Source: Bilabrum cf. latius
Lineage: Eukaryota
Direction: 5' to 3'
Assembly: GCA_965178125.1 (NCBI GenBank)
Contig: OZ237766.1
Span: forward strand, 124,001-188,000
Length of the DNA stretch: 64,000 nucleotides
Below are positions 1 through 64,000 of the stretch, piece by piece. Position numbers and translations under genes: made by a program. How positions within the stretch are numbered: position 1 is the first letter of the stretch; every line of letters starts with the position of its first letter. The notes below the pieces were generated by a model. The model worked only from the letters and a program-made list of their open reading frames with translations, had not been told where the DNA came from and made no database searches.

Positions 1-666
1 ACCAAGGAGACCGTGGGCGGCGGGCTGGCGCTCATTGATTTCGAGCAGCTCAGGATCGAGAACGCCACGGCGCACGAGAAGATCGAAGACAGGCAGGACG
101 AGCTGAGGCGGCTGAGGGCCAAGACAACCGCCACTGTGCAGGTGCTGACCCACGTGAAAGAGAAGCTACAGTTCGTGCAGAGAGAGACAACCAAGTACAA
201 GGAGGAAGCGAGGAAAGCGGAGCTGGCCGTGGGCGAGCAGAGGGCGCGGCTGGCGCGCGGCAAGCGGGTCCGTGAGCGGTCCAAGGCCGACAACGAGAAG
301 CGAGCCATCGCCAGAGGTTTCGCACACGAGGATGCGCTGGCAGTTGATTTCGAAAAGAGGCGCGTGAAGGGCCTCGAGCTGAGCCGGGAGGTGGAGAGCA
401 TGAAGGGGAGGTATGAGCAGCTGCGGCTGCAGGCGAGGCGAGCCAATGCAGAGGCCGAGACCGTGGTTAGAACGGCCCAGGCAGGGCTTATGGCGCTGCC
501 TGGGCTGGATAATGACATGTCCATGTCCATGGGAGGTGGAGGCAACTCCATGGTGGGTGGCATGGCGGAAGCGAGCCTCGCTGGCTCGCTGACTTCGACC
601 GGTGGAGGCAGGCGACCAGGGGGCTCTTCGCTCGCCCGCGCCGGGTCTAGAGCGCTCGCGCATTAA
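1..666 (+). CDS. CCDC96: CCDC96/CFAP184-like flagellar coiled-coil protein (3' part, truncated by window edge)
   Basis: LIDFEQLRIEN...EKIEDRQDELRRLRAKTTATVQVLTHVKEKLQF resembles the DUF4201 region of CCDC96. Ends at TAA 664-666, after which GC content drops. Confidence 0.8.
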   Translation, partial: TKETVGGGLALIDFEQLRIENATAHEKIEDRQDELRRLRAKTTATVQVLTHVKEKLQFVQRETTKYKEEARKAELAVGEQRARLARGKRVRERSKADNEKRAIARGFAHEDALAVDFEKRRVKGLELSREVESMKGRYEQLRLQARRANAEAETVVRTAQAGLMALPGLDNDMSMSMGGGGNSMVGGMAEASLAGSLTSTGGGRRPGGSSLARAGSRALAH

Positions 667-889
667 AGACGACTCTTTGTAGGCTTGCGCTTACAGCTAT
701 GGCTGGATCAGGGTCCAGTAGTGCAAGTGCTTGTCTATCGGAATTGCGATCCGCTACCCATCAGAGCTCGACTGGTAGTCTAGAGCATATGGCATTTCAC
801 ATAATCCGGATAAAGTGCACCAAAACTGCCCAGAATGTAGAGTCTGAACGCGCTCCTCGCCAAAGTATTCTATCGCAAAAAACGTACAA

Positions 890-1783
890 TCACTCGCCGA
901 CCTTTGTCTCCTTGCCCTCGGCTCCCTTGGCCCACTCGAAGTGGAAGCTCCCCTCATCGTCCTTGCGGCGGTAGGAATGCGCACCGAAGAAATCCCGCTG
1001 CGCCTGCGTGAGCGAGGCCGGCAGAGACTGGCGGCGGTACGCGTCGAAGTACATGAGCGACGCGGCAAAGGCGGGCGCAGGCAGCCCGCAGCCCGCGCAC
1101 AGGGTCACGACCCTCCTCCAGGCAGTCTGCCTCTCCACCACCTCCTTGGCGAACTCGGCGTCCACGAGAAGGTTCGCTAGGTCGGGGTTTCTGTCGTACG
1201 CCGCCTTGATGCGGTCCAGGAAAACGGCCCTGATGATGCACCCTCCCTTCCAGATGCGGGCGCACTCCCCCAGCTGCACGGACCACTTGTTGGCCTTGGC
1301 CGCCGACTTGATGATGTTCATGCCCTGTGCGTAGGAGCAGATCTTGGCGGCGTACAGAGCCGACCTCACGTCCTCGACCAGCTGCTTCTTGTCCACGGCG
1401 GGCATGTCCACGGGCCCGGTCAGGAGCTTGCTCGCCTCCTCCCTCTCCTCCTTCACACCGGAGATGTACCGCGCGTCCAGGGCAGCCGTGATCGTGCTCG
1501 CTGCCACGGACTGCTCCGCTGCCTCCTGCACGGTCCACCTGCCCGTGCCCTTCATGCCGGTCTTGTCCAGCACCTTGTCGACCAGGTGGCCGGTGGAGGA
1601 GGAGGCACCTGCCGCCCCCCCCTCTGCGGCCCCCCGGGGATCCTTGCATCTGAAGATCTGCGCGGTGATCTCGATCAAAAAGCTCTCCAGCTCCCCCTTG
1701 TTCCACTCTTCAAACACCTCCGCGATCTCGTCGTTGGACAGCCCCCCCACCGTCCTGAGCACATCGTACGCTTCCGCGATCAG

Positions 1784-1819
<36 letters not shown>

Positions 1820-2705
1820 CTTCACGTAGTTGCCCGCGCCGAGCTCACCCACCCATGTCACGCACGGCCCGTCATCCACCTGCGCGGCGATCTTGGTCAG
1901 GATAGGCTCCAGGGCGTCGTACGCCTCCCTGGGCCCGCCAGGCATCAGGGAGGGTCCGTACCTTGCCCCGTCCTCGCCCCCGGACACGCCCATGCCCACG
2001 AAGTTGATGCCCACCTTCGCGAGTTCCTCTCCCCTCCTGAGGGAATGGGGGTACCACTCGTTGCCTCCGTCGATGATGATGTCTCCCTCCTCCATGTGCT
2101 CCTTGAGCAGCGCAATCGTCTTGTCCACGGGGTCGCCCGCCTTGACCAGGATGATGACCCGGCGGGGCTTCTGCAGGGACTTGACGAACTCTCCAACGTC
2201 CTTGTAGCCCACCAGAGGCAGGTCTCCCTCGGCTTTGGCTCGCTCCACGGTCGTGTCCACCTGAGGTTGAGCGAGCGAGGTGGGAAGGGGGAGGCACGGG
2301 ATGATCAAGACACGCCAACAAAAAGAACAAACGTACAAAGACGGAGAGTGCAAGCCTTCAGAGGGAATAGCTACGACACGCCAGCCAGGATCGGCCGCAT
2401 CTTGTCGTCTGGATCGGCACCGTCACACAGAGGCAGTGGTGCAGCTGAAAGCTCGCATGCCCAGCAGGACATTCTATAATCTCGAAACTTATTCTTCGGT
2501 CAATGACGGCAGCACGAGCAGCAATCTCAACTTCTGGGCAACTTCCGGTCGCGCGAACAGTGGGGGATCTCACCTTTGCCGGAGACCGGTTACAAACCGC
2601 GATGGAGAATCCCTTATCAGCAATGTTCAGCGCCAAGTTCTACCCCATGACTGCAAGACCATAAAGTCCAATTACCGGTTGCTTAGCATCGCCTGCAGCT
2701 GCCAT
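890..2705 (-). CDS. PGD: 6-phosphogluconate dehydrogenase, decarboxylating (2 exons: 2705-2574, 2260-890)
   Basis: Exon 1 reads IGLYGLAVMG*NLALNIADKGFSIAVCNRS with in-frame TAG at 2640-2642. GT-AG intron 2573-2261. Exon 2 has DGGNEWY, GMGVSGGEDGARYGPSLMPGG, YVKMVHNGIEYGDMQLIAE and QAQRDFFGAH. Stop is TGA. Confidence 0.97.
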
Positions 2706-2858: not shown

Positions 2859-5800
2859 ATGGGCAGACGCAGCGCCTGTAGAACCAATTCAGTCACTCGG
2901 ACAAGAAGGCAGAGGATCCGGGCTCGCCGAATGGCCCGTGGTTTCGGAGCCGCAGCAGAGAAGAAGACTCTGTTTCTATCCGATGATGGGGAGGAAACCG
3001 GCAAAACAGCCGATGCAGACATCACTACAGAACAAAGAGCTGTGTTTTCACCTGTAGCAATGCTGAATGATGAGTCAGATAAGACAGGTGTTGCTTCACC
3101 ACCCCGTGAACGCGCCACGAGCTTCACCTCATGCGCTGGTTCGTTTGCGAGAGGAACGACAATGTGAGCATTCGGTGCCCAATATTGGGAGCACTGCGTG
3201 GTTTTTTTGTAGAATAGCGATTGTCGGGCCCTGCAAGCCACCGTTGCCGCTTAAGGCAGCCTTTGGAATGCAGTTCTGGATTGATACAATCGGCTTGACA
3301 TGCACCGGTATTGCACCCAGTCTACCGCGAAAGCAACATGATGATCGTCCGCACCGTTTCTCCGCAACTCACCACAACCTCGCAGGTTTGCCGCTAGAGC
3401 TGGTGCCCTGGCCTGGGGCATATCCCGGGCCGCGGCCGTGGGCGCAGGCTCGGCGGCATGGCACGGTGCCCTGGCCCTGGGGTCGCAGGGTGTTGCCGTG
3501 CTGACCGCCGCTGCTTCGGGGGCGGCTGCAACCAGCGGACAGGGAGTTGCCGGGGATGGCCTTGCAGGTCCTGATCCTGCCACCTCGCTGCAGCCTGTAG
3601 CAGGTGCTGGTGCTCGTGCTGGTGCTGGAATCGGGTTTGGCAGCGATGCAGGGTCTGTCGCGAGTGGAGTCACGCTCGTCGGTAGAATGGCCGCATCGTC
3701 ATCATCCATGCCGTCTTCGAGCCTGCCTTCATCTTCTTCAACTTCGCTGCGGGCGGTTACTGCCCTCGCCCGCCGCACCGATTCACTGGAAGCCGCGGTG
3801 CGAGAGCTGCTGGGCGCATTCAGGGAACAGGGCAAGGCCCTGCGGCAGCTGCTGCGGGCGCAAGAATCGGCGGAGGCGTCTGGTGCCGATCGCAATGTGA
3901 AGAGTGATGCCATCGAGCAGGCTCGGTACAGCATGATGGAGGCGGAGACGGACCTGGCCAGGGCTGTAGCAGCGTCTGCCAGCAAGGGGAAGGGGGGGAG
4001 CAGGGGGATGGGGAGAAGGCTCGCAGGTGCCATGGAGCGCGTGCGTGAAGCTGCCATGGGTCGGGAGCAGAGCAGGGAGTAGGAAGATGATGTCGCCGAT
4101 GATGTCGCTGGTGTTGGCGATACAGAGGAGTGCGAAGGGGAGGGGTGGGCAGTCGCGGGCAACTCCCGAGTGGATGGGCCCCGCGTGCGCTTCTCATTCG
4201 CTGGAGATGAAGAAGAAGAGGAGGAGGAGGAGGAGGAGGAGGAGGAGGAAGAGGGCGGTGATAAGGACAGGCCGGCAGAGGAAGGGAAAGGGGAAGTCGA
4301 GAATGCAAGTGGCCGGGACCAGCAGCCATAGGGATTGGTGCCATGCTAGCCTGCTGAACCCGAGGCTGCTGCTGCTGCTGCTAGATTCCGCAAGATGCTG
4401 GCAATGGGCATCCCACGGTGGCAGGTGGAGAGCAAGATGCGGCTCCAGGGGCTGGACCCGTCGTGCCTCGACCTCGACGGAAGCCAAGGTACCAGCACCA
4501 GCACCACAACGGCAACAGCTGCCGGTAGTAGCAATGACGATAGTGTTGATGCAGCGCGGGATCTACCGGCCAAGGCTGCCTCCCAGGGTGCCCCCTCTCT
4601 CCCCCCGGGGAGGAGGGGACCCCCCAGGAGGGGACTGCCTGCCAATCGGGTGCATGGACCCCAGAAAAAGCCGGGTAGAGCACCGCCACCCAAGTGCGCG
4701 GTGGGGGGCCCGTCTGTTTCCTCAGCCTCAGCTGCGGCATCATCATCATCATCTTCATCGTCGGGAGGCGGAGGAGGCATGGGTTCCTTGCTTGCGCAGA
4801 TCAAGGCAGCGGGCGCCAAGCGGAACCTCAAGAAGCGCGGCGCCAAGCAATCGTCGTCGAAGAAGGAAGGCAAGGCCAAGGACAAGGCCAAGGCCACCTC
4901 CGGAGGGGGCACGCTAATGGCGTAGGTGGCTGCGGCTGCTCTGAAGCGGCAGCAGAGGATCAGCAGGAGGCAACAGAAGAAGGAGAGCAAGCCACACGGA
5001 AACAATGCCGAGCGTGACGGTGATGAGGGCGAGGGCGAGGACGAGGACACCCCCCGCACTAGGAGGCAGAAACGACTGCGGGCATCGAGGGGAGGCGGCA
5101 ATGCCAGCGGGAGGTTCCCTTCCTCCTCCTCCTCCTCCTCCTCGGGCCGGTCGTTCAAATCAAAGTCCAGATCCGGCTCAGGGTCCGACCTTGGCCCCCC
5201 CGTGTTCTCTCCATCGATGAAGGATCGTATCTTAGGCACTGCCCTGGGCCAGCGCATGGTGCTGCAGCAGGAGGTGGCACGGCAGGCCAAGGGGATCGGG
5301 GCCAGCAGGCGAGGGGCGGGCGCGGGCATGGGGCTGGAGGGCGCGGACTCGCCTTCGAGCGTCTGGAGCGCATCCACGGACAACACTGACACTCGTCACA
5401 CCGGTGCCGTGATGCGCAATTACGCCGACATGGCGGTGGCGGAGCAGCGCCGGAGGATGGGGCAGGGGCTGCCGGGCGGGCTGGGGTCTCCGTTGGGCCG
5501 CGGGGCCGATGGTGTGACGGGTTCTGCTGCTGCTAGGAGCGGAGCGGAGCATGGGGATGCGTTGGGTGATGACTGTACCGTGGCTAGTGTGACGAGTGCG
5601 GTAGGCAGCCCCGCATCCGTGCGAGGCCACTCCCCAGGCCGCATGGGGGCGGAGGCGTACAACAACAAGAAGACGAAGCAAGTGGAGGAGGAGGAGGAGG
5701 AGAAGGGAATGGGCGAGTCTTCGTCTTCGTCTTCATCTTCATCCTCTTCCTCGTCCTCCTCTAGTCTGCGGGCGAGGCTGGCCAAGCTCTAGCAATCAGC

Positions 5801-6647
5801 GGCGGTGCAGCCACCCAAGACTCGGAGCAGGAGCAGCTCAAGGAACAAGAGCAGAGGCGCAGCGGGGATTGCGTGCCAAGACAAGGCCCATGCCAAGCAG
5901 CACACACAGGCTCAGGTTCAGGGGCAGTCGCAGAAAAAAACCGCCCGCCGCGGTGTCGTTCCTAGGGACGTGGGCGACTCGGACTCGGAGCCGGAAGGTA
6001 TTTCCGATTCCGAGTTCGTGCCCATGGATGCCTCGGGCACATTCAAAAACGCAGGGGGGCTCGCCGGTACCAGCCAAGGTTCCTTTGCGCGGCGGCGACG
6101 GGGCACGAAGCGCATGTCGCCAGACACTGCAGCAGCAGCAGCGGGCAAGGGAGGGGATCAGGATGGGAAGCAACCTGCGGGCAAGGGAGACGTCCTCGCA
6201 CGGCTCACTCGTCACACTATCAGCTCCTCTCGAAAGCGCAGGAGAACAGAGTCCAAGACCGGTGGAGCAACGGCGCCGCGCACGCCAGGTTCCGCAGTCA
6301 ACAAGCAGTCCTCGGCTGGCTCGGCCATGACCAAGGGGAAGAGCACAGGCAAGAGGAACAGAGGCAAGGGCAGTGGCAGGGCTGGTGGCTTGCTTCACTT
6401 GTCCTCACCTATCGGCAGCCGAGCGCTGCTTCGGAGTATCCCCAAGAGCAGCACGGGGTCTCCCCTGAGGGAGCTAAGGGGGGATGCTGTGGGGGTGACC
6501 CCGCAAGGGGGGGGCAAGGGTGTCCCCCGACTCTCTCTCCTCTCTGGACAGGGATCAGGATCAGCTGGTGCGGCTGGGCTGAGGCGAAGGGCAGGGGTTA
6601 AGGCAGGGGCGGGGGGAACGGGGCAGGTGGCTGGAGCGGAGGACTGA
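2859..6647 (+). CDS. Large low-complexity protein with a CCDC53/WASHC3-like helical motif and WH2-like motifs (putative actin regulator)
   Basis: ATG 2859. Intron 3164-3385 restores the frame. One frame continues through TAGs at 4080, 4329, 4347, 4923 and 5790 to TGA 6645-6647. Motifs: RFRKMLAMGIPRWQVESKMRLQGLDPSCLD, SLLAQIKAAGAKRNLKK and TLMA*VAAAALKR. Confidence 0.65.
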
Positions 6648-6770: not shown

Positions 6771-7236
6771 TCACGGATGCCAGCTGTCTGCAATCACCAT
6801 AGGCATGAGGTTTGGGTGCAGTGCTAGCCTATCCACGAAAGGCTGCGAGCCCTTGGTGCCTTCGCTGTCCTGAATAGCAACTCCACTGCTCTCTCTTGCA
6901 ACTTCAAGGTCCGTTTGAGCACCTCGCAAGGCATCGCATGCGGCCTGCATTGGACCCACCTACTGTTTACCATGCACTGAATTGCGATGCACTTCGCACG
7001 CCTCCGCCCAGGCCCCCCACGGGCTGTCTTCTTGCCCCCACATGATCGGCTGGGCGTGGTCCTGAAGCGCGAACCGCTGGGATTGCAGCGCCGTCTTCAG
7101 GGCCCTCCTGCCTGCCCACAGAGAGGACGGCGATTGCCTTTGCCCCTGTGCACGCCGATTGGCTTGGGGCAGGCCAAGAGGGATGGACAGGGGCATTTCC
7201 AGCGTGCTGTTCCTCGCATGCTGCCCAAATCTGCCG

Positions 7237-7297
<61 letters not shown>

Positions 7298-10070
7298 ATC
7301 GGGGCAGCAAAGTGGCCACGCCTCTGGGCACAGTGCTCGCAAGGCTGATCCACCCATGGATCGGCTACCCATCTTGGCCGAGCACCGGTGTCTCGTCCTT
7401 GTCCTCCTCCTCGCCGACGAAAGCCCGAGACACCCTGTCAAACTCTACGGGCATGCTGCAGCACGCCACTGCAGCCCGCCTCGCCGCCCTCGACTCGCGA
7501 TGGCCTAGAGCATCGACTGCACGCAGCACGCCAACAGGCGAGAACGGCGGTGATTCCAGCTGCAGGCTCAGTAGCGATCGAGTGATCCTCCGGGCCAGCT
7601 CGCCGGGGTCACCACCGGCACTGGTAGATTCAGCCGCCGCCGCAGAGACCACAGAGGCCATTACCCCCTCCGATGAGGTTACCCCGCAGGTGCACTCCTC
7701 TAACAGCGAGCGCCTGACAGTGTCACCCTCCTAGCCCTTACCGGCGATGAAAGACGCTTCGTGATCCGTACCCTGTGCCGCGACTTCAGCTGCGCCGTTC
7801 TCAGAGTTAGCCCGCACAGCGGCGTTGACCATGGCGAGGGCAGCGGCCAGCTGCCGGTAGGGACCAGCCAGAGCCTGGTGCGATGTCCTGAACTATATGG
7901 TGCCACTCGTGCCGGGGGGAGAGAGGGGCATGCCTGCTGCAGGGGGGATGTCGCTTGCAGCTGCGTCCTGCACGCAGGCCCGCATCGTCCACGCCGGGAG
8001 AACAATCTCCGCGATGCTTCGGCTCGCCAGGTAGGTCTCCATGAAGATGTTCTTGACTCTCTCCGTCTGCTGGCCCGCCTGCTTTGCCTCCACGGATAGG
8101 GGCCAGAACGGACCTGGCTCTCTCCCTAGGCCCGGGGCCAGGTCCAGTGCGAGCTGGGTCGAGTTCCAGCCCAGTCCCCTCATGGCATGCTCCCCTGCCG
8201 CCGAAGAGAACCATGACACTCGATTGGCGTGCACGTTCGGCAGCTGAGTGGTCACCACAGCGCACTGCTGGTGCAGGGAACACAGCTGAGAGGCCGCCCC
8301 GATGACCCCAAGACCCTGTTCCCCCGTTGGCTGCAGCTCGCCCGTCTCCATCAGAGCCTGCACGTGGCCTGCGCAAAGCCTCTCCTGCCCCTTACCGCAG
8401 CGGAGGTGCAGGCTAGGCAGCCCGTCGTGCAGCATCACCCGGCCCCCCATGAGCAGCTCGTTGGGCTTCGGGCCGTCCCTCCCACCATCACCATCCGCCG
8501 CCCCGCCCGCCACGACCGTTCTCCTGTCCACCGTGGGCATCCACGCAGCCATGTCTGCGTAGGCCCCCGCCTTGGAGTGGTCCCCGTCGATGAACAGAAG
8601 ATCCACTGTTCCCCGGGGAACAAACGAGGCCGCCTGCACCGAGTGCATCCTCAGCGTGTACGCCTGGTGACCCGCACCTGAAGCCCCGACCATGCGCGCG
8701 AACAGGCCCATGGATGTACCAGCCCTGGACTCTGACATGTACCACTTGAGCAAGGGATCCGATGTGGCTTCCTCCATCCTCGAGGCCTCGTCCGCGCCCT
8801 CGCCCTCGCCCTCGTTCTCGCCTGCCGAGTCTGTTTCCATCCAGAGGTCAACGGATACAACCCGTGCTGCCCAGTTGCCCCTGCGCCGCAGTGCAATGAG
8901 CATGGTCATCGTGCTCATGCCGTGGAAGCTCCCGATCTCGGCGATGACCCCAGCAGGGGGCAGCAGACGGGCCCGCTGGGCGAGGCTCGCCATGTCGCCC
9001 CTCCCAATGGCCGACTTGGCAGAGCTCTGCAGACCAGTGTGCCGCACTCGGGCATCTGACACCGCGTCTAGGAGGTGGCCCATGTCCCGGGTCACGGCCG
9101 AGTTGCCCTTGCCCTTGCACCTGTCCTCTCCCACCGCCTCCGAGACTGGCACCCTCAGCCGAGCCTGCAGGTCAGCCTGGGATGGCCCAGTCTTGGGGAC
9201 ACCGGTGTGCTCCCACTGGGCACACCCCGCACCGGGGGTCCGCTCCGACGTGAACATCGATTCGGAATCGATTGACCCACGCCCGTTCCCTGCTGCAGAG
9301 GACTGGCCATTCTGCACCCCAGGCCAGCTGCCCTCGGGGCTGGCGCCAGCACCGCCCTATGGCATGCCGGGCATGTACCTTGTGGCGTGGTGCATGGCAC
9401 ATGCATCTGCCCCCGCCCGATCCTGGGCTCCCGCGATGCACTCCGCTGCCAGCGCAGCCCGCCGCAGGTCCACCCACGTGGGTCGCGCAACGGGGAGGCC
9501 CGAGCCCATCTGCATGCCCCCGCCCAGGCCGTCATCCGAGGGAGGGAAGGGGAGCAGCATGTCGTTCCAGAACTGGCGTACTTCATTTGTACTGCCGTAT
9601 AGCTCGCGGGTGGCGCCTTGTCTGTACGCGGCTGGCGCGGCAAGACCGTCGATTGCACGCGATGTGCCCGCAGCTCGGGTCTTTCCAGGAGGGTTGCGTT
9701 CGGAAGGCTCTGGTCGATCACGGAGGCTGGCCTCCAATAAATTCGAGGTCAAGTCGTCCCAAGCAAGATACTTTCCTGTCGCAGGATCGTAGCATGGATC
9801 CTCGCTATGCGGTTGGACCATCAGCCTGTACGGGACACCGAAAAGCTAGCCTAACCGGCGTTGTCTGCCAGGCGCCGGTGTCTATGGAGAACTTGTATTT
9901 GTCATATCGTGGAGTTGCTGTCGAACAAGGGCAGAAATCACGTCGACGACGCAGGCAAATTGCCCATACTCGGGCCGCTCAGGTGCTGCCAGCTTGTGGA
10001 TGCCTGCCTGCACACATTGTACCAATATTGTGGAAGCGCAAAGAGCATATAGGAGCATGTGATGGCACAT
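6771..10070 (-). CDS. Class I SAM-dependent methyltransferase (Methyltransf_24-like) domain protein with N-terminal signal/hydrophobic segment, about 1100 aa
   Basis: Six listed ORFs share one frame and are joined by TAGs at 9882, 9846, 9357, 7893, 7731, 7365 and 6960. Ends at TGA 6771. Motifs: IAEIGSFHGMST, VVSVDLW, DLLFIDGDHSKAGAYADM, GGRVMLHDG. Confidence 0.7.
7238..7297. repeat. (TGC)20 microsatellite, poly-Ser in the methyltransferase frame
   Basis: Perfect trinucleotide run seen directly. Confidence 0.95.
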
Positions 10071-10594
10071 GTGTTGTCCTTCCTAGATATCGCGGCCAAT
10101 GTTTACCTGGCAACGACACGAGTGGCTGAGCGTTCACCGGCCAAGCCTGTTGCTATTCCGGGTTTTAGTCGAGCACGATCGCAGAGATGCGACCAAAACT
10201 GATACGACCAGATCGCCACGAGACTGGCAGTCGACCCGAATACTTAATGTAAGAATGAATCGTTGAGTATTTCCAAACTACAGCTCGGCGGATTGCGCTG
10301 TAAGCAACAGCATTAGAGTTGCACGATTCAACGGTACTCACTAAAGTGAACCACCGCTATCTCAATGTCAGGTCGGTACTGCGATGTATGGCCAGCCAAC
10401 GAAACAGGGAATTCGTCTTCTCCTGCAATTAAATTGGCCCTTGCTGTGGTTTTCGATCAGCAGTAGCTCTCTTGCTATCGATTCCAGCCACCCTCATCTC
10501 CAGAGGCGGCTGAGTATAGACAGTGGCCACCTAAACCTGTTCTATTTTCACAGCATTATGTTTTATCACTATGCGCAGAGATTGTTCTTGCGCA

Positions 10595-11227
10595 ATGTCT
10601 CAGACAGCACCTGCCCCAGCTCCTGCGCCCCAGGCGGGGACCGTAAAGCAGGCCACCGCCGGTGACATTGCGGCACCCGCCACTGGAGGCGCAGCCGGCG
10701 CAGACTTTTAGTACCCACTCTGCGGGTGCTTTTCCAACCTTGAAATGTGCTGTGCCGCGTGGTGCTTCTGCGGCTGGCCTTGCCTGTACTCCCAGGTCGG
10801 CAGCAGGATGGGCTACTATCCTCTCTGGGCCGAGGACTTTTCCTCTGCCTTCATGCGCATGTGCATCCTCATCGGGGTGGGCCTGCTGGCGGCCATTCTC
10901 GCCAACATTGGATCCGCGACGGGCACGCCCGCTCTCAACGTGATTGCCCAGATCATCGATTACATCCTGGCTATCGTGCTGCTCATCAACGGCTTCCTCA
11001 TGCGCACCACCCTCCGCGAGAAGCTGGGCATGCCCTCCAGCACAGTGTGCGACTGCCTGACCGTGTGGTGCTGCAGCTGCTGCTCCTGGGTGCAGATGGG
11101 CCGCGAGGTGGACGTCAAGACGCCCTGGGGGATGTCGGAGCAGCAGGAAGGCCTGGATTCTCGGATCCAGGCCAGGGGTGGTGGGGCGGGTGCACCAGCA
11201 GCTGGTATGGGGGTGGCGGTGGTTTGA
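10595..11227 (+). CDS. PLAC8 family Cys-rich membrane protein, copy 1
   Basis: ATG 10595. DF*YPLCGCFSNLEMCCAAWCFCGWPCLY with TAG at 10709, then MRTTLREKLGMPSSTVCDCLTVWCCSCCSWVQMGRE, a PLAC8 signature. Stop is TGA. Confidence 0.85.
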
Positions 11228-13469: not shown

Positions 13470-15074
13470 TCAGCGCCCCGATCCGGACGCGGCACCTCCT
13501 TCATCTGGGGCTCTGTAGAACGGGCTCGCCTGCCCCATCAGGGAGTCCAGCCAGTCCTTCTTGTCGTCTGCCGTCAGGCACTCGAACTGGAACACCCGCT
13601 TCGGGTCGGGGCACGGCTCGTCACCCGCGGTTTTAAAGGCGCGTTCTGCCCTCTGGGGGATGGGCACCAGTCTGAATTCCGTATCCGAGTCCTCCATGGG
13701 CTCGATCTTGTAGTTGTCCACGTCGATGTACAGGTCTTTCTGCGGCTCCCTCTCGTCTGCCTTCTCCTTTGTGGCATAGTAGGCGAGCAGGCCATCGGCC
13801 AGCTGCAGCCACCTCCTCTTCTTGCTCTTGGAGGAGAAGAACCCGCTGCCGCCGCCCTCCTTCATCACCCAGCCCCCGTGGTTGGTGTACTGCCGCTGGG
13901 CCACTGACATGAGCTCCACCTCCGTCAGCACCTCCTCGGGCGGCAGCGGCGCCGCCACACCCGCGGGGATCGGATCAGAGGGAGACGCGTCCCCGTCGTA
14001 GTCCGCCGGTTTGCCCACCGACACTTCCCCGGTGAGCTTGTGCTCGTAGGCGTCCTGCCCCCCTTGCGTCACCTTGCGCCATACGGGGTCGTACACCTTG
14101 CCAGACTCGCCGAATTCTGCGGGGCGCGCCCAGCAAGTCTCGGCCGTGCTGCGAGTGTGAAGATTCTTTTTGGTGTGACGAGTGCACAGTGGCAGGCAGG
14201 CGCAGGCACAAGCAATGTGAGGCAACGGCGATTCTACGCTGCAGCCTCGGCGGCAGCAGGACAAGGTTACTATTGGAGGCAGAGCGCTTACCGCATGTTG
14301 ATGTAGTAGAGTCTTTTCTGTTCCGGGTCGAATTCCTCCACCCACTTGGGCCCCAGGGCGTCGTCCTCCTCGCCGGCGCCCGCTCGCCCATCGTCGGACG
14401 CGTCGGGCGGGCCGTCACGGCGAGACCGGAAGCGGCGATTCCACCAGAATGTCTTGCCAGTGGCAAACTCGATGAGTTCGACCCACTTGGAGTCCCGGAT
14501 GGTGTCCTTGTTCACGTGGTAGTCGCGGGACAGGACGGGCATGTTACCGGTGTAATAATCGAACGCTGTGGGGCCAGCAGCCACGCCAGGCAGGGGCATG
14601 TGGAATTCCTGCATGTCAAGTAGTGCTTCAAAGATGTGTGGTTCTGGTGCGTTTGCCATTGGTCGATGGCACCTCGCTGTGCTCATTGAAGCTGACCCGA
14701 CCACCGCGAGGGCGACAGGCCAGCGTGATCAGGAACAAGCCTTGGTCTGGCAATAAGAGCTAATTATTTTGTTGGCTCGCATGCACATGATCCTTCGTCA
14801 ATTGCCAGTAATTCAGAGTTCGGGCTAGCAGCAATCTTACCTTCGATACCACGGGCAGGTTGCCACTGAACAGGTTCCAGGCGGGCATACCGTGCCTGTA
14901 TCCAATCGGTGGCTCAATTTTGTGCATACTATGTGACCTTTTGATCTTGCCGTCGGACATGCTGGAGACTGGTGGGTCCTCAGATGGTTTCCATTTCCCG
15001 AGCGAGGCTGGGATTGCGGAACTGAATCGCTGCGCGGCGCCGCGAAGCCGGTGCGCATGGTTTTTATCCTTCAT
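13470..15074 (-). CDS. WW-domain and PH-domain protein (exons 15074-14841, 14608-14292, 14148-13470)
   Basis: GT-AG introns restore the frame. WW-like segments: KWVELIEFATGKTFWWNRR, KWVEEFDPEQKRLYYINMRTAETCWARP, WRKVTQGGQDAYEHKLTGEVSVGKP. PH domain: GWVMKEGGG...KRRWLQLADGLLAYY...FQFECLTADDKKDWLDSL. Stop is TGA. Confidence 0.8.
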
Positions 15075-25904: not shown

Positions 25905-25919
25905 GCGTGATTTTTATCG

Positions 25920-28856: not shown

Positions 28857-29277
28857 GATTGAGTATAGATCGAGATTTGCCGTTGGTTCAGTATTCAGTT
28901 TGGGCTGCTGTCCCGCCTGCCTCGAGCGAAGCGAATGTTCGGCAAATGAACCGAAACCAGAACCTCGACTCCCATCAAGTACATCGCGCGCCAGCAACTG
29001 CCACAGAGAGAGTAGAGGGTGCGAGAGACGCAATATTAATCATTCCAGGTAGCTTACTGAGAGAGTTGGTGGCATTGGGACTGCTAATCTTTCTTGATTT
29101 ACGCACAACTTTCCTCTTCTAAAGATTGGATCAAGTGCCCTGCTGGGCCTCTTGTGCAACAGTGCTGGGGCACGCAGCGCTCGATTCGATATCTGGTGTA
29201 TAACTCTGTATTTAAACTATTGTGAATTTGGCTCACTGCGTTGACTCAGCTTCCCAAAGCGCGGCACTAAGCAGGCA

Positions 29278-44800: not shown

Positions 44801-46418
44801 GTCGGAGCCTCCAGCCAGCGCTGAAGTCGTGGCGGAGCGCGTCCCCGTCAGGCAGCTGCTGCCCCCGACGGTGGAATCCGCCCCTGCGGTGAGCACGGTG
44901 AGCTGCTTGCCCCACCCCGCCGCGGGAGACAAGTTCGACCCAAGGGCCGCGTGGACCAGGACGGAGCCGCCGTCCGCGCCAAATTCCACCGTGCCGGTGA
45001 CTGTAGAGTCGCGGGTGACCGACCCGGAGGGCGACGGTTCCGAGATCACAGCACTGAGTGCCCCTGCGGACACGGACCGCCAGTGCGCCCGCTCGAAGGG
45101 CATGTCCAGGAGGCCAACTTGCTCGTTCGATGGCGTGCGACGCACCCCGAGGGGGCTCGGGCCCACCTGGGCCGTCCTCGACACCAAGCTGCCGATACCA
45201 TTCGTGTTTGTGGTGCTTTTCGATGTTTCTCGGCTTGCAAGCTGGCTAGGTTCGCGAGAAATGCCGCCTGCTTGTGCGCAGCTCCGTCCACGCGCGTTCA
45301 CTTCACCTCCGCTGCTTCCACTCTATGATTCGTCTGCCGAAGAATCGCTGTCGCTGAAGGCATCCAATTCGTTCTTTTCTTCCACAAGATTCGGGACGAT
45401 GCTGCGCCTAAACTTCGGAGCTTGCGCTGGCATCGATCGGACGGCCTGTCGTTCGGCCGGGCCCTGGCTCTCGCCCCATTCCGCTTCTGTTCGTTTAGTG
45501 GACGACCGCAGCCCAAAGCTCGAAGTGCTCTGAGCAGCGTGCGAGCCATACTTGATAGTGGTGCTAATCTGCCTTTGCTTTGACGCTCTTTCCGGGACTG
45601 ACCTGCCACGAGCAGCGAGTCCAGAGACAGGTCCTGCGGCGCGCCGAGCACCGGTGTCGGGCCCAACTTCGGGCGATGCAGCGCAAACAGTGTCCGAAAC
45701 GGACCGTAGTAGTGACGATAGTCTATATGGAGCTTGCTCGTTTCCGTCTGTACCCGTCTTTGGGCCAGGAAGCTGCGGTGGCACGACCACTGTGCCGTTG
45801 CGCATCTGCAGCGGCACCGCCAGCTCCCTTACGGCTCGTTCTACCGGTTCTTTGCACTGCTTACATATTCTCGTAGATATGGCTTCCACTCGAACTAATT
45901 TGTTGCTGTCTGGTAGACCACCTCCCGCCACCGCAGGATGCTCGGGGACGAGCACCGGGTCCTTCGGGACGCAGTCTCCGCACGCAGAGGCGCCACACCA
46001 GCGGCTGCAATAGGCAAGGGATAGGCGATTCGAAGGTATGGGAAGAATGACATCGAATCGATGTACTCGAAAACATGCACTAAGGGATGTGCGGCACACG
46101 TTACGTGTTGAAAGGGCCGGAGCGACTTGACGCGCCCCGACGCCAAAAGCCAAGCAATGCTCCCGATCGGCGGTCAAGCGGTATAACTCACCAATGATGC
46201 TGTCGCCATAGAAGCGAATAGGAGCTGCCACATATGGAGCAGCTGGGCTGGGACGGAAACCAGTGCGCCCGGCTCTTGCCGGCGAGCACCGACTTCAGCT
46301 TCTGGCGCCTTTCCGCCCACATTTTCTTTCCACGAAGGGATTCGGCAGTAGTTTTCTTGCGGTCTGGCAGCGACGTAGAAAACGCTCTAATCCTAGGAAG
46401 GGCACCGCGATCCTCCAT
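38855..46418 (-). CDS. Giant FYVE zinc-finger protein with long disordered tail, about 2450 aa (exons 46418-46192, 46004-38855)
   Basis: Splicing yields WFPSQPSCSICGSSYSLLWRQHHCRWCGASACGDC...TRICKQC (FYVE). Seven ORFs in one frame joined by nine TAGs (45323, 44228, 43277, 41099, 41048, 40811, 39725, 39704, 39428). Ends at TAA 38855. Confidence 0.75.
39865..40652. repeat. 87-bp coding minisatellite, about 9 near-identical copies (29 aa GADVAGLSAGLLGSMAPPEGAEDVGQDGD)
   Basis: Directly visible period of 87 bp, in frame within the FYVE gene. Confidence 0.95.
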
Positions 46419-46568
46419 CGCGAGGTTCTACGACTTGTCAGCAGGTTGTCGTCGAAGATCCAGACTCGTCGCAAATATGCACCTTTCGTAGACTATACCA
46501 GACAGTTCGGAGTGAAAAAAACATTGTGGCAACTGGCGAGAAGCAATCCTTGCGTGGCCAACGGGAGC

Positions 46569-48977
46569 ATGCTGCGAGAGGACGACGATTTTGTGTCTTC
46601 CTGTGGTGGCGATGACAGAATCGGACCAGTGGCAGCACCGAAACCGGGAGACGCAGATGTTGTTTCCCGTTGTCCCATCTGCAGCAGCGCTCCGGGGCAA
46701 ATTTCTCTAGGAGACCAGCGCTTGTGCAGCAAGTGTTTTGCAAGCAAAGTTCAGTCGCATGTTCATTATGCTCTAGGGGAGGTGTTCAGCTCTCACAAGC
46801 TGAACCGCACCGTGGTTCTTGCGTTCTCTGGCAACTTCGGCAGCTTTGCCACAACCTCTGGCGTGGCTTCATGGCACAGATCTAGAAGCGAGGGAATTGC
46901 AAGGTTCATTCAGGGTCAATTGGCTCGCTTCGATTCCGAAGATGCTGAGAAGGCGCGAAGCAGTCGTTTGGCAGGATGGGCTGCGGAAGACGTCGCCTTG
47001 CTGCGGCGCTACTTGGCCACACGTAGCAGCCAGTCGCATGACAGCGCCAGCTCTGTAGATAGTAAGAGTAGCACCAAAGTTGATGTTACATTACTGCCTG
47101 TTCTCAGCGTGCCTTCTCGCCTGATCCGCGCGCTGCGGCCTCCCGCTCGCCTCTCGCTGCCCCCTCGCGTGGCGCTGCTTCACGTGGACTGCACTGCCAT
47201 CGACGCGATCGTTCGGGGGCCTCGGGGGCGGGCATCCGAGGGTGCACTGCGCGGTGGTGCATCGCGGGGTGAAGTGTCCGTTCGGCAGGCGGCGGAGCAT
47301 GCCAGGCAGGCGGCGGGTGGGATCGGGCCTGCCCTCAGGCTGTTCCAGTGCAGGCTCGAGGACGTGTTCCTGCCGGCTGTTCCGGGGCATCATGATGTTG
47401 CAATGGGTGAAAGAATGGGTCGTGCTAGTGGGACAGGATCTAGAGTAAGTAGGTAGATTATGCCCCTGGTCGAGCTGGAATGGGGAGGCAAGACCGAAGT
47501 GGGTGGACAGGGGCAGCAAGCGGCAGGTGCGGGCGCATCATCTAAAGCAGCCGGCGAAACATTGCCAGCTGCATCTAGCGCAAGCATTGATTCGCGGGGC
47601 GATGTAAGAGCTAGGAGTCCCAGGTCCGAGTCCCGGGTGCTAGCCCTTCACGCCCTGCTTGGATCGCTTGGGCACGCGGACGCGCAGGAGAGGATGCTGC
47701 GCGTGCTGCACGGCATTGCGCTGCGGCGGGCGGCACTTGCTGTGGACGCACTGCTGAGGGGGGAGGAGGCATGCGGGGATGAGGACGAGGATGGCCGAAG
47801 GGGGGAGAGCAGGAAGGCAGCAGCCGAATAGCACGGTGGGGGTGGTGGATCCGTCCCCAGTGCGGGGTATGCCCCTGCCCATGCCCATGCCCCCCTCCCG
47901 GTGCTGGTGCTCAGCACCAATGGGGACAAGGCAGCGGAGCTTACCATGACTTCGCTTGCCGAGGGCACCGGGTATGGCGTGGCGGAGGGGTCCAAGGTCT
48001 TAGATGCACGGCACTGCGGCGCGGATGCAACTGCAGCCGGGGGCGCCCCCGGCCCCTTGTTGCTGAGACCGCTGCTGGGGCTGGGTCGACTGGACCTGGA
48101 GGCGTACGGCAGGCTTTGCGAGTTCGAACCTGTACCCAAGCAGCGAACCTTCTTGGCGAACCTTCGCCGGCCCCGCTCGAGCGTGGCGCAGGTCGCAGCC
48201 AAGTTCGTCCGCACGCTGCAGGACGGTTTCGTGTCCACTCGTCACGCGGTGCGGCGCACCATGGACAAGCTGAAGGAACCACCTTTGCTCGTCACACAGG
48301 AAGGGTTAGGATCTGCCGCAGAGAGTGGTGTGACGAGTGAGGGACCCGTACTGTGTCCGTTGTGCGGGGAATTCCAGTCGCCTTTCGATTCCGAGTTAAG
48401 CAAGCAATCCGGGGAATCATTCCGGGCTGGGACAGCAGAGGGTCCTCCTTCCGGTTCCGCTGCATTGTTGCGCGGCGCCTCCCTCTCACTGCTTCCGGTT
48501 TGCTGCCACGCCTGCCGCGTGATGCTGCGGGAGGCCGGACACGCCTCGGCCGGGGAACTGTCCCGCGTGGGGCACTACGGGGCGCGTTCGGTGGCTGTGA
48601 CGAGTGCGCGGGGAACACGGGTCGGCGAGGCGGCAGTTGACGGGGGTAGTGGGGCTCTTGGCGACGGTGTGACGAGTGATTCGTCCGTGGCCAGTCTGCT
48701 GCCCCCGTCCGTGCGTGCAGGCGTCGTGTTGGGGTGGGCGGCGGTGAGCGAGGGGGTCAGCAGCGGCGTGGCCAGTGTGACGAGTGCGCGCTGCGAGGGC
48801 ACCAGCGGGAGCGCAGAGTCAGGGCGGGACGGCAGCGGTGGTGGAAAGGGGTTTGCCGGTGCAGGCGGCCGGGGCCCATCTTCGGCGTGGACCCGGCAGC
48901 AGATGCTAGCGTCGATAGGAGAATTCCTGCTCGACGATGATGGCGGTGCTGCCGGGGGTGGCAAGACCGGAAGCTGA
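46569..48977 (+). CDS. CTU2: Cytoplasmic tRNA 2-thiolation protein 2 (CTU2/Ncs2)-like
   Basis: N-terminal CPIC..LCSKCF, VVLAFSGNFGS, LLRPLLGL..DLEAY, SVAQVAAKFVRTLQDGFVSTRHAVRRTMDKL, LCPLCG, CCHACR and C-terminal IGEFLLDDD. TAGs at 47454 and 47829. Stop is TGA. Confidence 0.8.
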
Positions 48978-58204: not shown

Positions 58205-59073
58205 GTTGTAGTTTCTTGGTTGCTGTGGTGGTTTTGTGAGTGCATGTGGAGCGCGACAGATCGCTACGAAAAATTGAACGTAACAAACAAACTTATAAGC
58301 TACTCGGGTGGGGGGAAAAGGGAGGGAAAGGAGGCCGACGACGGTGATGCCCGGCTCCCACTGCGCTTGGTCTACCATACTGGCGGTCTGCGTCCTTAAC
58401 GAATTCAATAAGTTAATGGCAGCAGTCCGCGCCCGCGCACCCCGATCTCCAGAAAGCACCTTCCTTTCCCGTTGTCACAGCGATCTACACGGAGGAGGGC
58501 TATGAAGTCATCATTTCAAAGGTCAGCAATGCCTCAGCATACAGGCCGGATTGTGGAGGAGAGGCTTGGCATGTGAATTGGAGCAAACTTGCACATGAAA
58601 CACTAGACCACGGACTAGACGAGGTTGGTCGTAAGCTACACACCGCCAGGAGGCATTGTTTCTGCCAAGAAGGTTTGCATTCATTTTTTGTACGCCTTTA
58701 AGTGTGCCTTACGGGATCTTCTTGTCTCTAAACAACGGAAAGCTAGGCCTCGGTGCGTGAGGGTTCTGGTTTAGCTAACGAGAATCCTACAGCATCGGAT
58801 CGGGAGGAGGCAAGGCAAGAGCGTGGATGTCCAGGTCAGGACATGGGCCAGGTGGATCACGATGGAGTTAGTAACGAAGATCCGGATCCGGGCAAATATC
58901 TTAGTCGATCATTAATTGCAGCCGCATTAGTTTGGTCACTGCGCACAATGTCGCCACGGAGGAGTAATAAAGGAGGGATGCACATACAGAGGGCTCGGCA
59001 CCATATCTGTACAGATCTATCACTGCGACATTGTTCCGTATGATCTACAGTCCTCGCTACGATGCCCCCCCCC

Positions 59074-59737: not shown

Positions 59738-62310
59738 TCAGCCGCGCTTGTCCGCCGCTCCTCCTGCCGCAGCCCCGTCGCCGGCGGTCAAGAAGTCGCC
59801 GCGCTCGCCCAGCACCTTGCGCGCGGCAGAGTCCCCGCTCAGGAGATCGTGCCTTGCCACGGCCAGCGCCAGCGCCAGCGTCAGCCTCACGAACTCCGAC
59901 CTCGAGACCTTGCTCTTGCTTCCGTCCACGTCCTGCAGCACCATCCCAACGAGGTCGGTCTTGCTCTTTGACGAGGCAGACATGAACAGATCCGCCCTCG
60001 AACGCATCTCGCGGGCGGCTGCAGCCAGCCGGCGGCCGTCTCCCGCTACACCGTCCGCAGAACCCCCCGCCCCACCCTTGCCGCTTCCGGAAGCAGCCGC
60101 CACGGACGCAGCCCCGGCCTTGATGGGCTCCTGTGCCACCACCTCGGCCGGCACATCGTCCGCAATGGTGAACGCGAGTCGCGTGCAGTTCCCGCGGGTG
60201 TCGTCACGCAGCCGCTGTGCGAACACCTGTAGGTTGCTGGCCAGCAGCTGCGGAACCTCAGCCGCGGGGAGGGATCCGGAATCGTCCGACGAGTCGTGCT
60301 GATCGAAGGCACCGAGGAACTCGCGGAGGTCGGGCACCCGCAAAAAGAACCGGTGGGCCGCCTCTTTGTTCTCTCCGGAGATCTTCAGGCTCGCCCAGTA
60401 GTCACGGGTGACGTCTTCGGAGAGCCATTCAGCCACCGCCTCCACGTACCCAGGGGCAAGCAGCCCGCCCGCGCGTCGCGCCCTCGCGAAGTTGGCCCGC
60501 GACACTGCCACCAGGTCGCTGGGGCAGATGTCCGGCCTGACAGCAGCGAGGAAGAGGGCGCCCGCGATCCTGCAGAACTCCTCGAATGTCACCACGTCAT
60601 CGTCAAGGGCCCCGCAGTCCTCCATGAGCGCCTGCACGATGGCGTCCAGGTCCGCGGGCCTGGCCTTGGCGAGGGCGTCGAGGGACTGGCGCAGCATCCT
60701 GCGGGCGCGGGAGGGGTCAGAAGCGCGGTCCGCGAGTGCCGTCTGCAGGCTAGGGTCGTCGTGGAAGATCCTCCGCAGGAAGAATTTCCGCAGGTCTGTG
60801 ACCATGGCACGGAGAGAGTCATCGTCCCGGCGGACCATCTCGTCGGCACCAGCGAGCTCCTTGAACTGCCGGCCGAGCTGCGAGACGAACGTCGCGTCCG
60901 TCATGAGCGTCTGCATGGCGTCGTTCACCTTGCCCCGCACCAGAGTCACGTGCGGCCACGAGCCCCTCTCCAGCTCGAGGCAGAGCGAGTGCCAGAGTCC
61001 CTCTACGTATCGTCTCGCAGCTGCCCTTGCCCTGCTCTTGGCAGCAGCAGCCTCCGCAAGGAGACCATGTTCGTTCTTGTGAGCGCGGTGGTAGTCGATG
61101 CCCAGACCCATGGCCCGAGCGTTGGACTGCTTTAGCTCCTGCTCCAGGCTCCTGATGCGGGCTGCGTCGGCGGCTGCGTGAGCGACAAGCTGGGCCTCGT
61201 GATCGTGCGCCTTCTCGTAGTCGATGCCGTAACCCATCGCTGCCGCCTTGGCACGCGCGAGTTCCTGCTGCAGAGCGCGCTCGCGGGCTGCGGCAGCGGC
61301 ATGAGCGGCCATCAGCTTGGCTTCGTTCTCCTGGGCGCGGGAGGCATCGATTCCATAGCCCATGGCAGCGGCACGGGCGCTGGCCAGGTCGTGCTTGTAC
61401 TGGCGCGCGCGCGCAGCCTGTGCGGCTGCCTCTGCAATGGCCTGCTTCTCGTGCTCGTGTGACCTTTCAAAGTCGATCGAGGTCCCGATCAGGTGCCCGC
61501 GGGCGTCGGCTAGATCCCGTTCGAGAGCTCGCACTCGAGCTGCCTTGGCTGCATCGGATGCCATCAGCTGCCGCTCGTGATCGTGCGCCTTCTCGTAGTC
61601 GATGCCGTAACCCATCGCTGCCGCCTTGGCACGCGCGAGTTCCTGCTGCAGAGAGCGCTCGCGGGCTGCGGCAGCGGCATGGGCGGCCATCAGCTTGGCT
61701 TCGTTCTCCTGGGCGCGGGAGGCATCGATTCCATAGCCCATGGCAGCGGCACGGGCGCTGGCCAGGTCGTGCTTGTACTGGCGCGCGCGCGCAGCCTGTG
61801 CGGCTGCCTCTGCAATGGCCTGCTTCTCGTGCTCGTGTGACCTTTCAAAGTCGATCGAGGTCCCGATCAGGTGCCCGCGGGCGTCGGCCAGATCCCGCTG
61901 GAGGGCTCGCGCCTTGGCTGCACCCGCAGCCGCCTCGGCCAGCAATTGCCGCTCATGGTCGTGCGCCTTCTCGTAGTCGATGCCATAGCCCATTGCAGCG
62001 GCTTGGGAGCGGGAGAGCTCCTGCTGCAGAGCTCGCTCGCGTGCTGCGCTAGCTGCGTGTGCTGCCATCAGCTTGGCTTCGTTCTCCTGGGCGCGGGAAG
62101 CGTCGATGCCGTAGCCCATGGCCGCGGCTTGAGCCTCCCGCAGCTCCCTCGCGAGCTCATGGGCGTGGCCCGACTGAGCAGCTGCCTCTGCCACAAAGCG
62201 GCGCTCGTGCTCGGCGGCGGCGCGAGCAGCAGCGGCGGCTGCAGCCTCGCCTACCCCATCGCCAGAGCTTCGAGCTCCGTCAATTGGTCCATGTGAGCCC
62301 GCAAGATCGC
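59738..62310 (-). CDS. Coiled-coil 42-aa repeat protein with C-terminal EF-hand-like motifs (last exon; upstream exons probably in 63000-64000 or beyond)
   Basis: Open frame from a putative acceptor at 62311 to TGA 59738. EF-hand-like motifs: DDDVVTFEEFCRI, DQHDSSDDSGSLPAAEV, DVDGSKSKVSRSEFVRL. Confidence 0.7.
61080..62160. repeat. Higher-order coding repeat: 126-bp (42-aa) units grouped into 378-bp trimers
   Basis: MGYGIDASRAQENE / MGYGIDYEKAHDHE / LIGTSIDFERSHEHE units recur. DNA period is 378 bp (e.g. 61201 vs 61579). Confidence 0.9.
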
Positions 62311-64000
62311 CTGCAATAGCGCTACCACCTGCGCAACATGGGCCAGTTGCAGTGAACAGGTATGCGGTGTGAAGCTGTGGAACGGCTCAAATGCTTGCAC
62401 AAAAGTGGCATTCATGAGATGGTATGGGGTTAACATATACAAGAGAGCTTGATTTGTACACATTGCTAAGTTATTGTACGTGGGACGGCCATGTTCACCC
62501 ATTGTGCAGCAACATCGCTAGCATGTCACGCGCAGAAGTACCGTGCCGTGAAGCATGTGAAACATGCTAAGCAGTCACCCCAACGTGTTATCAATGATAC
62601 ATACAACAATGTTTATATCATTGGAAGGAAGAAACATGATGAGCCACGGTTTCGCAGATATTCCAATGGCGTTCCCACGGGACACGACTGAAGCGATCCA
62701 ACATTCAAGAGAGCTATGTAGTCAATAGCTTCCCGGCTTAAACCGCATAGACACACAACGAGTCTTACCACCACGACCTGCCACTGAATCCGCGGACCTT
62801 CCTGCCATGTTTAGTACTGGAGCTGTGCGCAGAGATGCACAAGCTGCGATCCATTCACGAGCACCGCCCGGTCGCAACGTGAATATGACATATTTCGGAA
62901 ATGTAATGAGCAATTTCAACCCTGATCGCGACGCAACGCGAGTGCTTCCTAACCACGCATTCCCACGATTGTATCCAACGACCCGTGAAATACCTTGCTT
63001 TTACAAGGGCTGTACCAAGTCGCGGTGGTCTGGCACTGCAATGCTTTGGGTGGTGGACAGGCGCAGCCGCTCCAGCGCATAGGCTGGATCATCAGCAGGA
63101 TTCAGCCGGCACACGTTCGGAGTTGCTTCTGCGATTGGATTGGCCAACAACGGGAATATCTTCTCTGAAGCAGGCTGCACGAACGTGCCGCCCGACAGAT
63201 TGGACAAGCGGTTGTAACCAGGAGGATCTGCCAGTTCCGGATTTTATAAAATGCGCAGAAGTCATAGATTGACTGACTAAAGTACAGGAATGCAATGCCA
63301 GTGAAGCGCCCGAAGCGTATCACTTCAGCAGCTCGCGGTGGGCGGCGTCGCGCGGGGCCCTCATCTGCAAGCCGACATCCCCTTGCATCGCAAGTAGGCA
63401 CACAGGCAGTGTAGCAGTCGCACAGCCATGGTCATGAAGTGGACACGTAGAACACATAGAGCTCAAAAGGGATTAAGTTTTCAGGGCGTAGCCAGCAGGG
63501 TGTCTCGGATACTGCACGTATCAGCGAGGATGACGAGATGATCTTGTTGCAGGGACGCTTGGCATGCCTCTTAGACATAGGGCAACATTCCGCAGCCTAC
63601 AGCAACGAAGATCTAATGGTACACCCTGACGTATTTCCGGAAATCGTACCTGGCACTCTTGTGGGGCTAGTCAAACTAAATGCTGCCTCAACCCGGCATG
63701 CGGTGTCCCTGGCCGAGCCGACTGGCGCAAGCTCTGTCGAGCCGCAGGTGCCTCCATCCCTGCCGAAATCGGGCATGACGCGACATGCGTACACGAACAC
63801 ATTGGGCGGGACCTATTCAGCGGCAGATCGCGCAAAGAGCCCTCGCATGGGCCCCTCGGCCTCACCTGCAGCCTCGTCCTCCAAACGAGCACTGAAGGGC
63901 CTAGAATCTCTGGGGTTGCGAGGAGAACAGGCTGCCGGCGCCGCGCAAATACTGCGAACCTTGGAGATGCGGGGCATATCTGGAGGGTCCAGTGCAGCCG

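Follow-up and report, generated by a model that had tools for sequence, protein, structure and literature searches.

Gene content of the window

We analysed 64 kb of DNA from Bilabrum cf. latius (contig OZ237766.1 of assembly GCA_965178125.1, positions 124,001 to 188,000 of the forward strand), here called the window, in which the triplet TAG repeatedly stands inside the reading frames of genes. The gene set consists of 16 modelled genes and 2 to 3 further open reading frames (ORFs), and the content of guanine plus cytosine (GC) is 62% over the whole window. When TAG is translated as glutamine, these frames match Pfam families that point to eukaryotic nuclear DNA. The recognisable products range from 6-phosphogluconate dehydrogenase (6PGD) and a NIPA magnesium transporter to ciliary coiled-coil, PLAC8-family, EGF-repeat and helicase proteins (Table 1). 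Judged by its sequence, the window very probably belongs to the nuclear genome of a stramenopile protist. Our data suggest that UAG is decoded as glutamine in this genome and that UAA and UGA would still terminate translation.

Reading frames interrupted by TAG alone

We compared the ORFs of at least 300 amino acids that result when each stop codon in turn is treated as sense. Under the standard code there are 40 such ORFs with 18,122 residues in total, the longest of 1491 residues. With TAG as sense there are 52 ORFs with 32,502 residues, and the longest reach 2479, 1836, 1784, 1481, 1259, 1120 and 1100 residues. Treating TAA as sense brings almost no gain (40 ORFs, 18,352 residues, longest 1491). 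Treating TGA as sense gives 103 ORFs and 48,373 residues with longest frames of only 1491, 977 and 920; this surplus reflects the frequency of TGA, the most common of the stop triplets, and frames of comparable length are absent.

The stop-to-stop frames contain 69 in-frame TAGs, spread over 13 of 18 ORF segments. Trimmed to the first ATG, the 17 segments that make up the 16 genes hold 65 TAG, 0 TAA and 0 TGA in 15,266 codons, with at least one TAG in 12 of the 17. In their two remaining frames these ORFs hold 67 TAA, 186 TAG and 468 TGA. Off frame, TGA thus outnumbers TAG by about 2.5 to 1, but the coding frames hold TAG alone, so that interruption by TAG only is not a matter of chance. The base that follows the TAG is G in 22 cases, A in 21, C in 16 and T in 7; the lack of a fixed pattern argues against readthrough driven by a motif.

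An earlier reading of the same DNA, made from its letters alone (the sequence-only reading), had counted about 75 in-frame TAGs in 17 of about 22 genes. These counts are somewhat higher than ours and stand in substance, with 65 to 69 TAGs found here plus one in a WW-domain ORF, and with 16 genes modelled and 2 to 3 ORFs besides. Its description of ORF fragments that line up in one frame and are split by TAG only agrees with the gain in ORF length and with the tally of 65, 0 and 0. It had also stated that CAA is in regular use, and the modelled genes do contain 118 CAA against 505 CAG, which makes CAA 19% of CAR codons (CAA plus CAG, 118/623).

At 23579-23611 on the minus strand, within the coiled-coil protein of 1481 residues, six TAGs alternate with lysine and arginine codons to give qKqRqRqRqRqR, where the lower-case letter marks TAG. 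Repeat slippage seems to have given rise to these copies of the reassigned codon.

TAG is retained in spliced contigs

The sequence of the window recurs in eight sequencing runs (X1 to X8) at 95-100% likeness, under three coded organism labels and in three studies; the labels may stand for strains, co-cultures or differences in labelling. Contigs of runs X5, X6 and X7 skip positions 2258-2570, 14149-14291 and 14608-14839, whereas the DNA run X1 reads through all three. The skipped stretches run CT..AC on the plus strand and hence GT..AG when read on the minus strand, where the genes lie. Runs X5 and X7 on the one hand and X6 on the other belong to two studies, both distinct from the DNA study of X1. 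No run is filed as RNA, so we infer the transcript origin of X5, X6 and X7 from these three splice joints alone, and automatic labelling rates X5 as "probably DNA"; the evidence consists of assembled contigs and does not include raw reads.

The TAG in 6PGD exon 1 (2640-2642) lies within two spliced contigs, record 14 of X6 and record 20 of X7, which join 2257 to 2571. These contigs extend over 2571-2712 and 2571-2714 with 0 other letters and with no gap or joint at the TAG. In the methyltransferase frame, X6 contigs covering 7314-8055, 8860-9471 and 9516-10107 run unbroken across seven of the eight TAGs and an X7 piece (6775-7005) spans the eighth, while an X5 piece (7306-8465) spans three. 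A further X5 piece (4284-5313) crosses three TAGs of the CCDC53-like gene with no gap. Among the 40 base differences listed between the window and runs X1, X5, X6 and X7, none coincides with a TAG. UAG is shown to be a transcribed in-frame codon that is retained after splicing, neither edited nor spliced out in these contigs.

One X5 contig differs from the window at 39 letters across 11701-12739. These mismatches are probably due to cross-mapping of the two PLAC8 paralogues.

Close relatives mostly carry glutamine at matched TAG sites

Scanning of metagenome contigs for matches to exon 2 of 6PGD yielded two relatives from the same metagenome, L001 (4,340 nucleotides, 57% GC), with a 6PGD 88% identical to that of the window, and L002 (13,260 nucleotides, 69.5% GC), with one 73% identical. 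L001 represents the orthologous locus, in which 6PGD and the CCDC96-like gene stand tail to tail as they do in the window. The window 6PGD TAG is CAG in both L001 and L002. In turn, TAG stands in frame twice in exon 2 of the L001 6PGD, at VERqTAWRR and LTqAQRDFFGAH, and the window has CAG at both. The first of these columns is Q in 17 of 20 aligned homologue rows and H in the other three; the second is Q in 19 of 19. The L001 CCDC96-like gene adds three further TAGs, which brings the contig to five in 4.3 kb. One of the three lies opposite an arginine codon (AGA) of the window, one stands in an SQSQSq run, and one is opposite Q in two of the four solved homologues shown.

Protein relatives give a similar result. 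P0241, a NIPA relative 82% identical to the window protein, has Q at window TAG 181 (RQxRGG) and the same C-terminus. P0247, a methyltransferase relative 70% identical by BLASTP, has Q at window TAGs 7893 and 7731. Altogether there are seven TAG sites for which a relative at least 70% identical exists, and six of them pair with Q and one with R. At the window and L001 TAG sites with readable DNA, three of four pair with CAG. With substitution frequencies estimated from the same close-relative alignments, the log10 likelihood over the seven sites is -2.46 for glutamine; histidine comes second at -9.79, a gap of more than 7 log10 units. We put the probability that UAG encodes glutamine at roughly 0.92. 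The sequence-only reading had proposed both that UAG is sense and that it means glutamine; homology that runs through the TAGs of the 6PGD, NIPA, methyltransferase and EGF genes bears out the former, together with the spliced contigs, and the paired sites favour the latter. The 6PGD peptide that it had singled out (AVMGqNLALNIADK) is present on the minus strand, where its TAG occupies 2640-2642.

Several database proteins from close relatives (P0121, P0123, P0241, P0247 and P0248) are fragments. P0123, a 6PGD protein of 378 residues, ends exactly at EVVER, the position of a TAG in L001. P0241 begins at an internal methionine, P0247 and P0248 each cover about 265 residues of a methyltransferase-like protein that is about 1100 residues long, and P0248 terminates just before a Q of the window. 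This suggests that genes of relatives have been cut at TAG by gene calling under the standard code. Judged by its own TAGs, at least one sequence-distinct relative, the source of metagenome contig L001, has the code in common with the window, and a third relative, known solely from fragmentary predicted proteins, probably has it as well.

Gene ends and alternative readings of UAG

Several points weigh against the reading of UAG as glutamine with UAA and UGA as the only stops, and they are set out here beside the alternatives that they favour. The evidence base is the 64-kb window plus 4.3 kb of L001. Neither ARAGORN nor Rfam found a tRNA gene in the window, where no RNA family of any kind was matched by Rfam, and no Pfam match to the eRF1 family was found among the window ORFs scanned.

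TGA closes 14 of the 16 genes and TAA the other 2, and beyond these stops the frames look non-coding. The sequence-only reading had listed 20 TGA and 2 TAA ends; among the genes modelled here the restriction to these two codons holds and the count is lower. A Condylostoma-type code, in which UAG would be glutamine inside genes and a terminator at some gene ends, gains from a TAG at 15112-15114, one codon before the TGA of the 1836-residue frame, which could be a real stop. TAG was also handled as sense throughout, so that gene ends at TAG could not appear. Nevertheless a UAG terminator is required at 0 of the 16 gene ends of this sample, and the TGA or TAA ends of the 6PGD, NIPA and CCDC96-like genes coincide exactly with the ends of their relatives: 6PGD at TGA in both window and L001, and NIPA at the same point as P0241. 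Frames also continue for 46 to 75 codons past the last TAG in the EGF, helicase and methyltransferase genes, and alignments of EGF homologues extend at least 10 residues beyond it. We regard such a double role for UAG as unlikely.

Under code 6, the ciliate and Hexamita type, UAA and UAG would both encode glutamine, and TAA would be rare inside genes on account of the high GC content. TAA is indeed the rarest stop triplet on both strands (393 against 845 TAG). The ratio of CAA to CAG nevertheless predicts about 15 in-frame TAAs beside 65 TAGs and none was seen, for which the Poisson probability is 2.5e-7. ORFs are bounded by TAA and TGA, so the absence of internal TAA and TGA is partly built in, and this is why the ORF comparison serves as an independent check, in which TAA as sense lengthens no long frame. 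In addition, the TAA that ends the CCDC96-like gene (SRALAH-TAA, 664-666) aligns with a TGA stop in L001 (SRALAT-TGA), and the sequence downstream of both TAA stops looks non-coding. This makes code 6 very unlikely. We consider with good confidence that UAA and UGA remain stops within this sample, as had been claimed before.

UAG could also be sense and specify another residue, such as Glu, Lys, Leu, Ser or Tyr, as in other lineages. Individual distant or paralogous matches do show other residues. Four downstream TAGs of the EGF gene face S, G, A and R in P0001 (48% identical), the methyltransferase TAG at 7365 (codon 902) faces E in P0250 (42% identical), and the TAG of PLAC8 gene a is K in its paralogue b (ADFQYPLCGC, with TAG as Q, against TDFKYSLCGC). 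The column of the window 6PGD TAG is A, K or Q in solved 6PGDs (five alignments shown), and the EGF TAG columns are variable, Q occupying only 3 to 5 rows of about 120 in any one of them. Such columns carry little weight because they vary, and they add no support for glutamine. The close relatives, with Q at six of seven sites, a lead of more than 7 log10 units and one L001 TAG in a column that is Q in every row, leave another residue a still smaller chance than code 6.

The chance that the TAGs go untranslated, as assembly or sequencing errors, targets of RNA editing, tiny introns, pseudogene lesions or sites of programmed readthrough, appears negligible, with no point found in favour of it and against it the agreement of runs X1, X5, X6 and X7 from three studies, the TAG kept in spliced 6PGD contigs, frames broken by TAG alone (which pseudogenes would not yield), the separate TAGs of the independent relative L001 at Q columns, and 65 sites with no fixed following base.

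Codes of the Condylostoma and Blastocrithidia types that give all three stop codons a sense meaning were considered and do not fit the 0 TGA and 0 TAA in coding frames.

Host lineage and extent of the code change

All 12 matches of the EGF-repeat protein that bear an organism name are stramenopiles (Cafeteria, oomycetes, ochrophytes and Hondaea), and the taxid 33652 in one of these names is the genus Cafeteria, Bicosoecida. For 6PGD the best named match by identity, among the matches listed, is Cafeteria roenbergensis at 71%. The same 71% is reached by a EukProt record prefixed PLAT, and oomycetes and ochrophytes reach about 66-68%. A search of the ESM Atlas with 6PGD returned generic, mostly bacterial 6PGD clusters with no taxonomic signal. 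It is highly probable, judging from these matches, that the host is a stramenopile, as the sequence-only reading had supposed.

We built a quick maximum-likelihood tree of 6PGD from 37 rows hand-picked from the 120 listed, together with the window and L001. In this tree the window forms a clade with L001 and the Logan protein P0121, supported at 100 in the Shimodaira-Hasegawa-like approximate likelihood ratio test (SH-aLRT), and L002 is sister to Cafeteria (87). A clade of ochrophytes and oomycetes (96) leaves out the window clade, whose deeper placement is not settled. A position outside ochrophytes and oomycetes is what we infer from this single-gene tree.

L002 shows no gain in ORF length with TAG as sense, and at 13 kb it is too short and too GC-rich to prove a standard code. 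L001 and L002, found in one metagenome, bracket the code change between them. The change appears confined to the window clade, because L002 lacks the TAG gain and because the accessible text of the Cafeteria genome paper mentions a non-standard code for the mitochondrion only (PMC6972860).

Other features of the window

The coordinates of the genes and introns are given in Table 1. Upstream of the main NIPA ORF, the frame 38270-38420 on the minus strand specifies an N-terminus typical of NIPA proteins (…GVLVGCIASVASNFGVNLQKYSF…) and then runs into a TGA, so that the NIPA gene would have at least one more intron. Two tandem repeats lie inside long frames. One, at 39855-40653 in the frame of 2479 residues, has an 87-nucleotide unit (29 residues) repeated 9.2 times at 99% matching and sits in the GC maximum of the window (71%). 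The other, at 61196-62128 in a TAG-free frame of 882 residues, has a 378-nucleotide unit repeated 2.5 times at 91% matching.

Between 52000 and 60000 the GC content falls to 55-57% and long frames are absent. The FMN-reductase exon is the only feature recognised there, and the gap ORFs 57359-57793 and 58145-58474 gave no Pfam match; this region may hold intron-rich genes or non-coding DNA. The intergenic segment 12674-13340 has a word depth of 1396 in DNA run X1 against about 30 to 180 elsewhere and no Rfam match. It may be a high-copy element or a sequence common to other organisms in that run.

Table 1. Genes, exons and introns of the 64-kb window, with in-frame TAG positions and gene ends
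Feature	Position	Strand	In-frame TAG	End	Support or remark
CCDC96/CCDC113-like ciliary coiled-coil gene, 3' part	1..666	+	0	TAA (664-666)	Pfam PF13870, 1.9e-27
6PGD exon 2	890..2257	-	0	TGA (890-892)	Pfam 6PGD, 2.5e-124
6PGD intron, GT..AG, 313 nucleotides	2258..2570	-			joint 2257 to 2571 in X5, X6 and X7 contigs
6PGD exon 1 (MAAAGDAKQPVIGLYGLAVMGqNLALNIADK...)	2571..2705	-	2640-2642		
WASH-complex CCDC53-like gene	3345..6647	+	5: 4080, 4329, 4347, 4923, 5790	TGA	Pfam PF10152
Methyltransf_24-domain gene	6771..10133	-	8 (stop-to-stop frame): 10083, 9882, 9846, 9357, 7893, 7731, 7365, 6960	TGA	Pfam
PLAC8-family gene a	10535..11227	+	10709-10711		Pfam PF04749
PLAC8 gene b	12123-12788				tandem paralogue of a
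PH-domain gene	13470..14840	-	none in last exon		Pfam PH
PH-domain gene introns (2, GT..AG)	14149-14291; 14608-14839	-			joints in X5, X6 and X7
Low-complexity protein, 1836 residues	15106..20616	-	11, one at 15112-15114 (second-to-last codon)	TGA	
Coiled-coil protein, 1481 residues	21239..25684	-	11	TGA	
Teneurin-like EGF-repeat protein	25911..28856	+	5: 25962, 26907, 27630, 28584, 28713	TGA	Pfam
UPF1-like helicase	29245..34599	+	5: 29560, 29596, 34072, 34345, 34369	TGA	AAA_11/AAA_12
NIPA Mg transporter, main exon	36824..38269	-	37964-37966, 37727-37729	TGA	Pfam PF05653
Low-complexity frame, 2479 residues	38855..46294	-	10	TAA	
CTU2-like gene	46131..48977	+	3: 46209, 47454, 47829	TGA	weak match
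Low-complexity frame, 1259 residues	49509..53288	-	4	TGA	
FMN-reductase exon	53381-53950	-			gap ORF scan, Pfam
WW-domain ORF	outside the 16 modelled genes		1		Pfam

Discussion

Our data point to a nuclear code in which cytoplasmic translation would decode UAG as glutamine and would terminate mainly at UGA and rarely at UAA. By analogy with other reassigned lineages, the decoder would be a tRNA-Gln with the anticodon CUA, or an equivalent, and eRF1 would have lost recognition of UAG.

A literature search, conducted mostly outside subscription journals and without supplements, found no report of nuclear UAG reassignment in stramenopiles. We lean towards the view that a stramenopile code with UAG as glutamine is really unreported. 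To about the same degree, we favour an independent origin of the combination of UAG as glutamine and UAA as stop within stramenopiles, which would be the first nuclear code change of that group. It would be found in a small clade (the window, L001 and probably a third member) with a GC-rich genome that terminates at UGA. A code of this kind in stramenopiles would mean one more independent origin, in a major supergroup. Gene calling under the standard code fragments the proteins of this organism, so that its genes would be under-represented or mis-annotated in public catalogues.

As far as its sequence can be read, the window fits the pattern of NCBI table 15 on every testable feature. Nuclear codes that split UAG from UAA are named for a handful of lineages in the accessible text of PMC11687900. 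According to the same text, UAG means glutamine and UAA stays a terminator in Iotanema spirale (Fornicata), in Protocruzia tuzeti and in the phyllopharyngean ciliates Hartmannula sinica and Trochilia petrani, and both features appear to be those of the window. These lineages are metamonads and ciliates, whereas the host here is very probably a stramenopile, with 62% GC and with UGA at 14 of 16 gene ends and UAA at 2. The phyllopharyngean ciliates with this code terminate with UAA, whereas the window uses mainly UGA. If our reading is true, the setting is nearly the opposite of theirs and would lend itself to testing whether UAG stops became rare enough for capture under GC pressure.

Other known codes share one or more of these features. 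UAG is leucine in an uncultured rhizarian and in some phyllopharyngeans and serine in Scotinosphaera (PMC11687900, accessible text); there UAG and UAA are uncoupled as in the window, but the residue differs from the glutamine that we propose. Many ciliates, Hexamita, ulvophycean green algae, Streblomastix and Amoeboaphelidium read both UAA and UAG (UAR) as glutamine (table 6) according to the same source. As in the window, stop codons one step from glutamine codons (UAG from CAG) have been captured for glutamine, but UAA is reassigned there, whereas in the window it appears to be a stop. In crAss-like phages with code 15, TAG is likewise read as glutamine according to the accessible part of PMC9523058; that is a phage system, whereas the window has spliceosomal GT..AG introns and ciliary genes.

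The nearest comparison by 6PGD identity, among the named matches listed, is with Cafeteria roenbergensis (Bicosoecida), a stramenopile flagellate whose genome is GC-rich and intron-poor like the window. In the sources accessible to us the Cafeteria-like lineage gives no sign of a UAG code, and the window clade stands apart from it in the 6PGD tree. A comparison set is at hand, with near relatives using the same code on one side and a Cafeteria-like lineage without sign of it on the other, in which the steps of reassignment (gain of the tRNA, change of eRF1 and loss of UAG stops) should be directly traceable.

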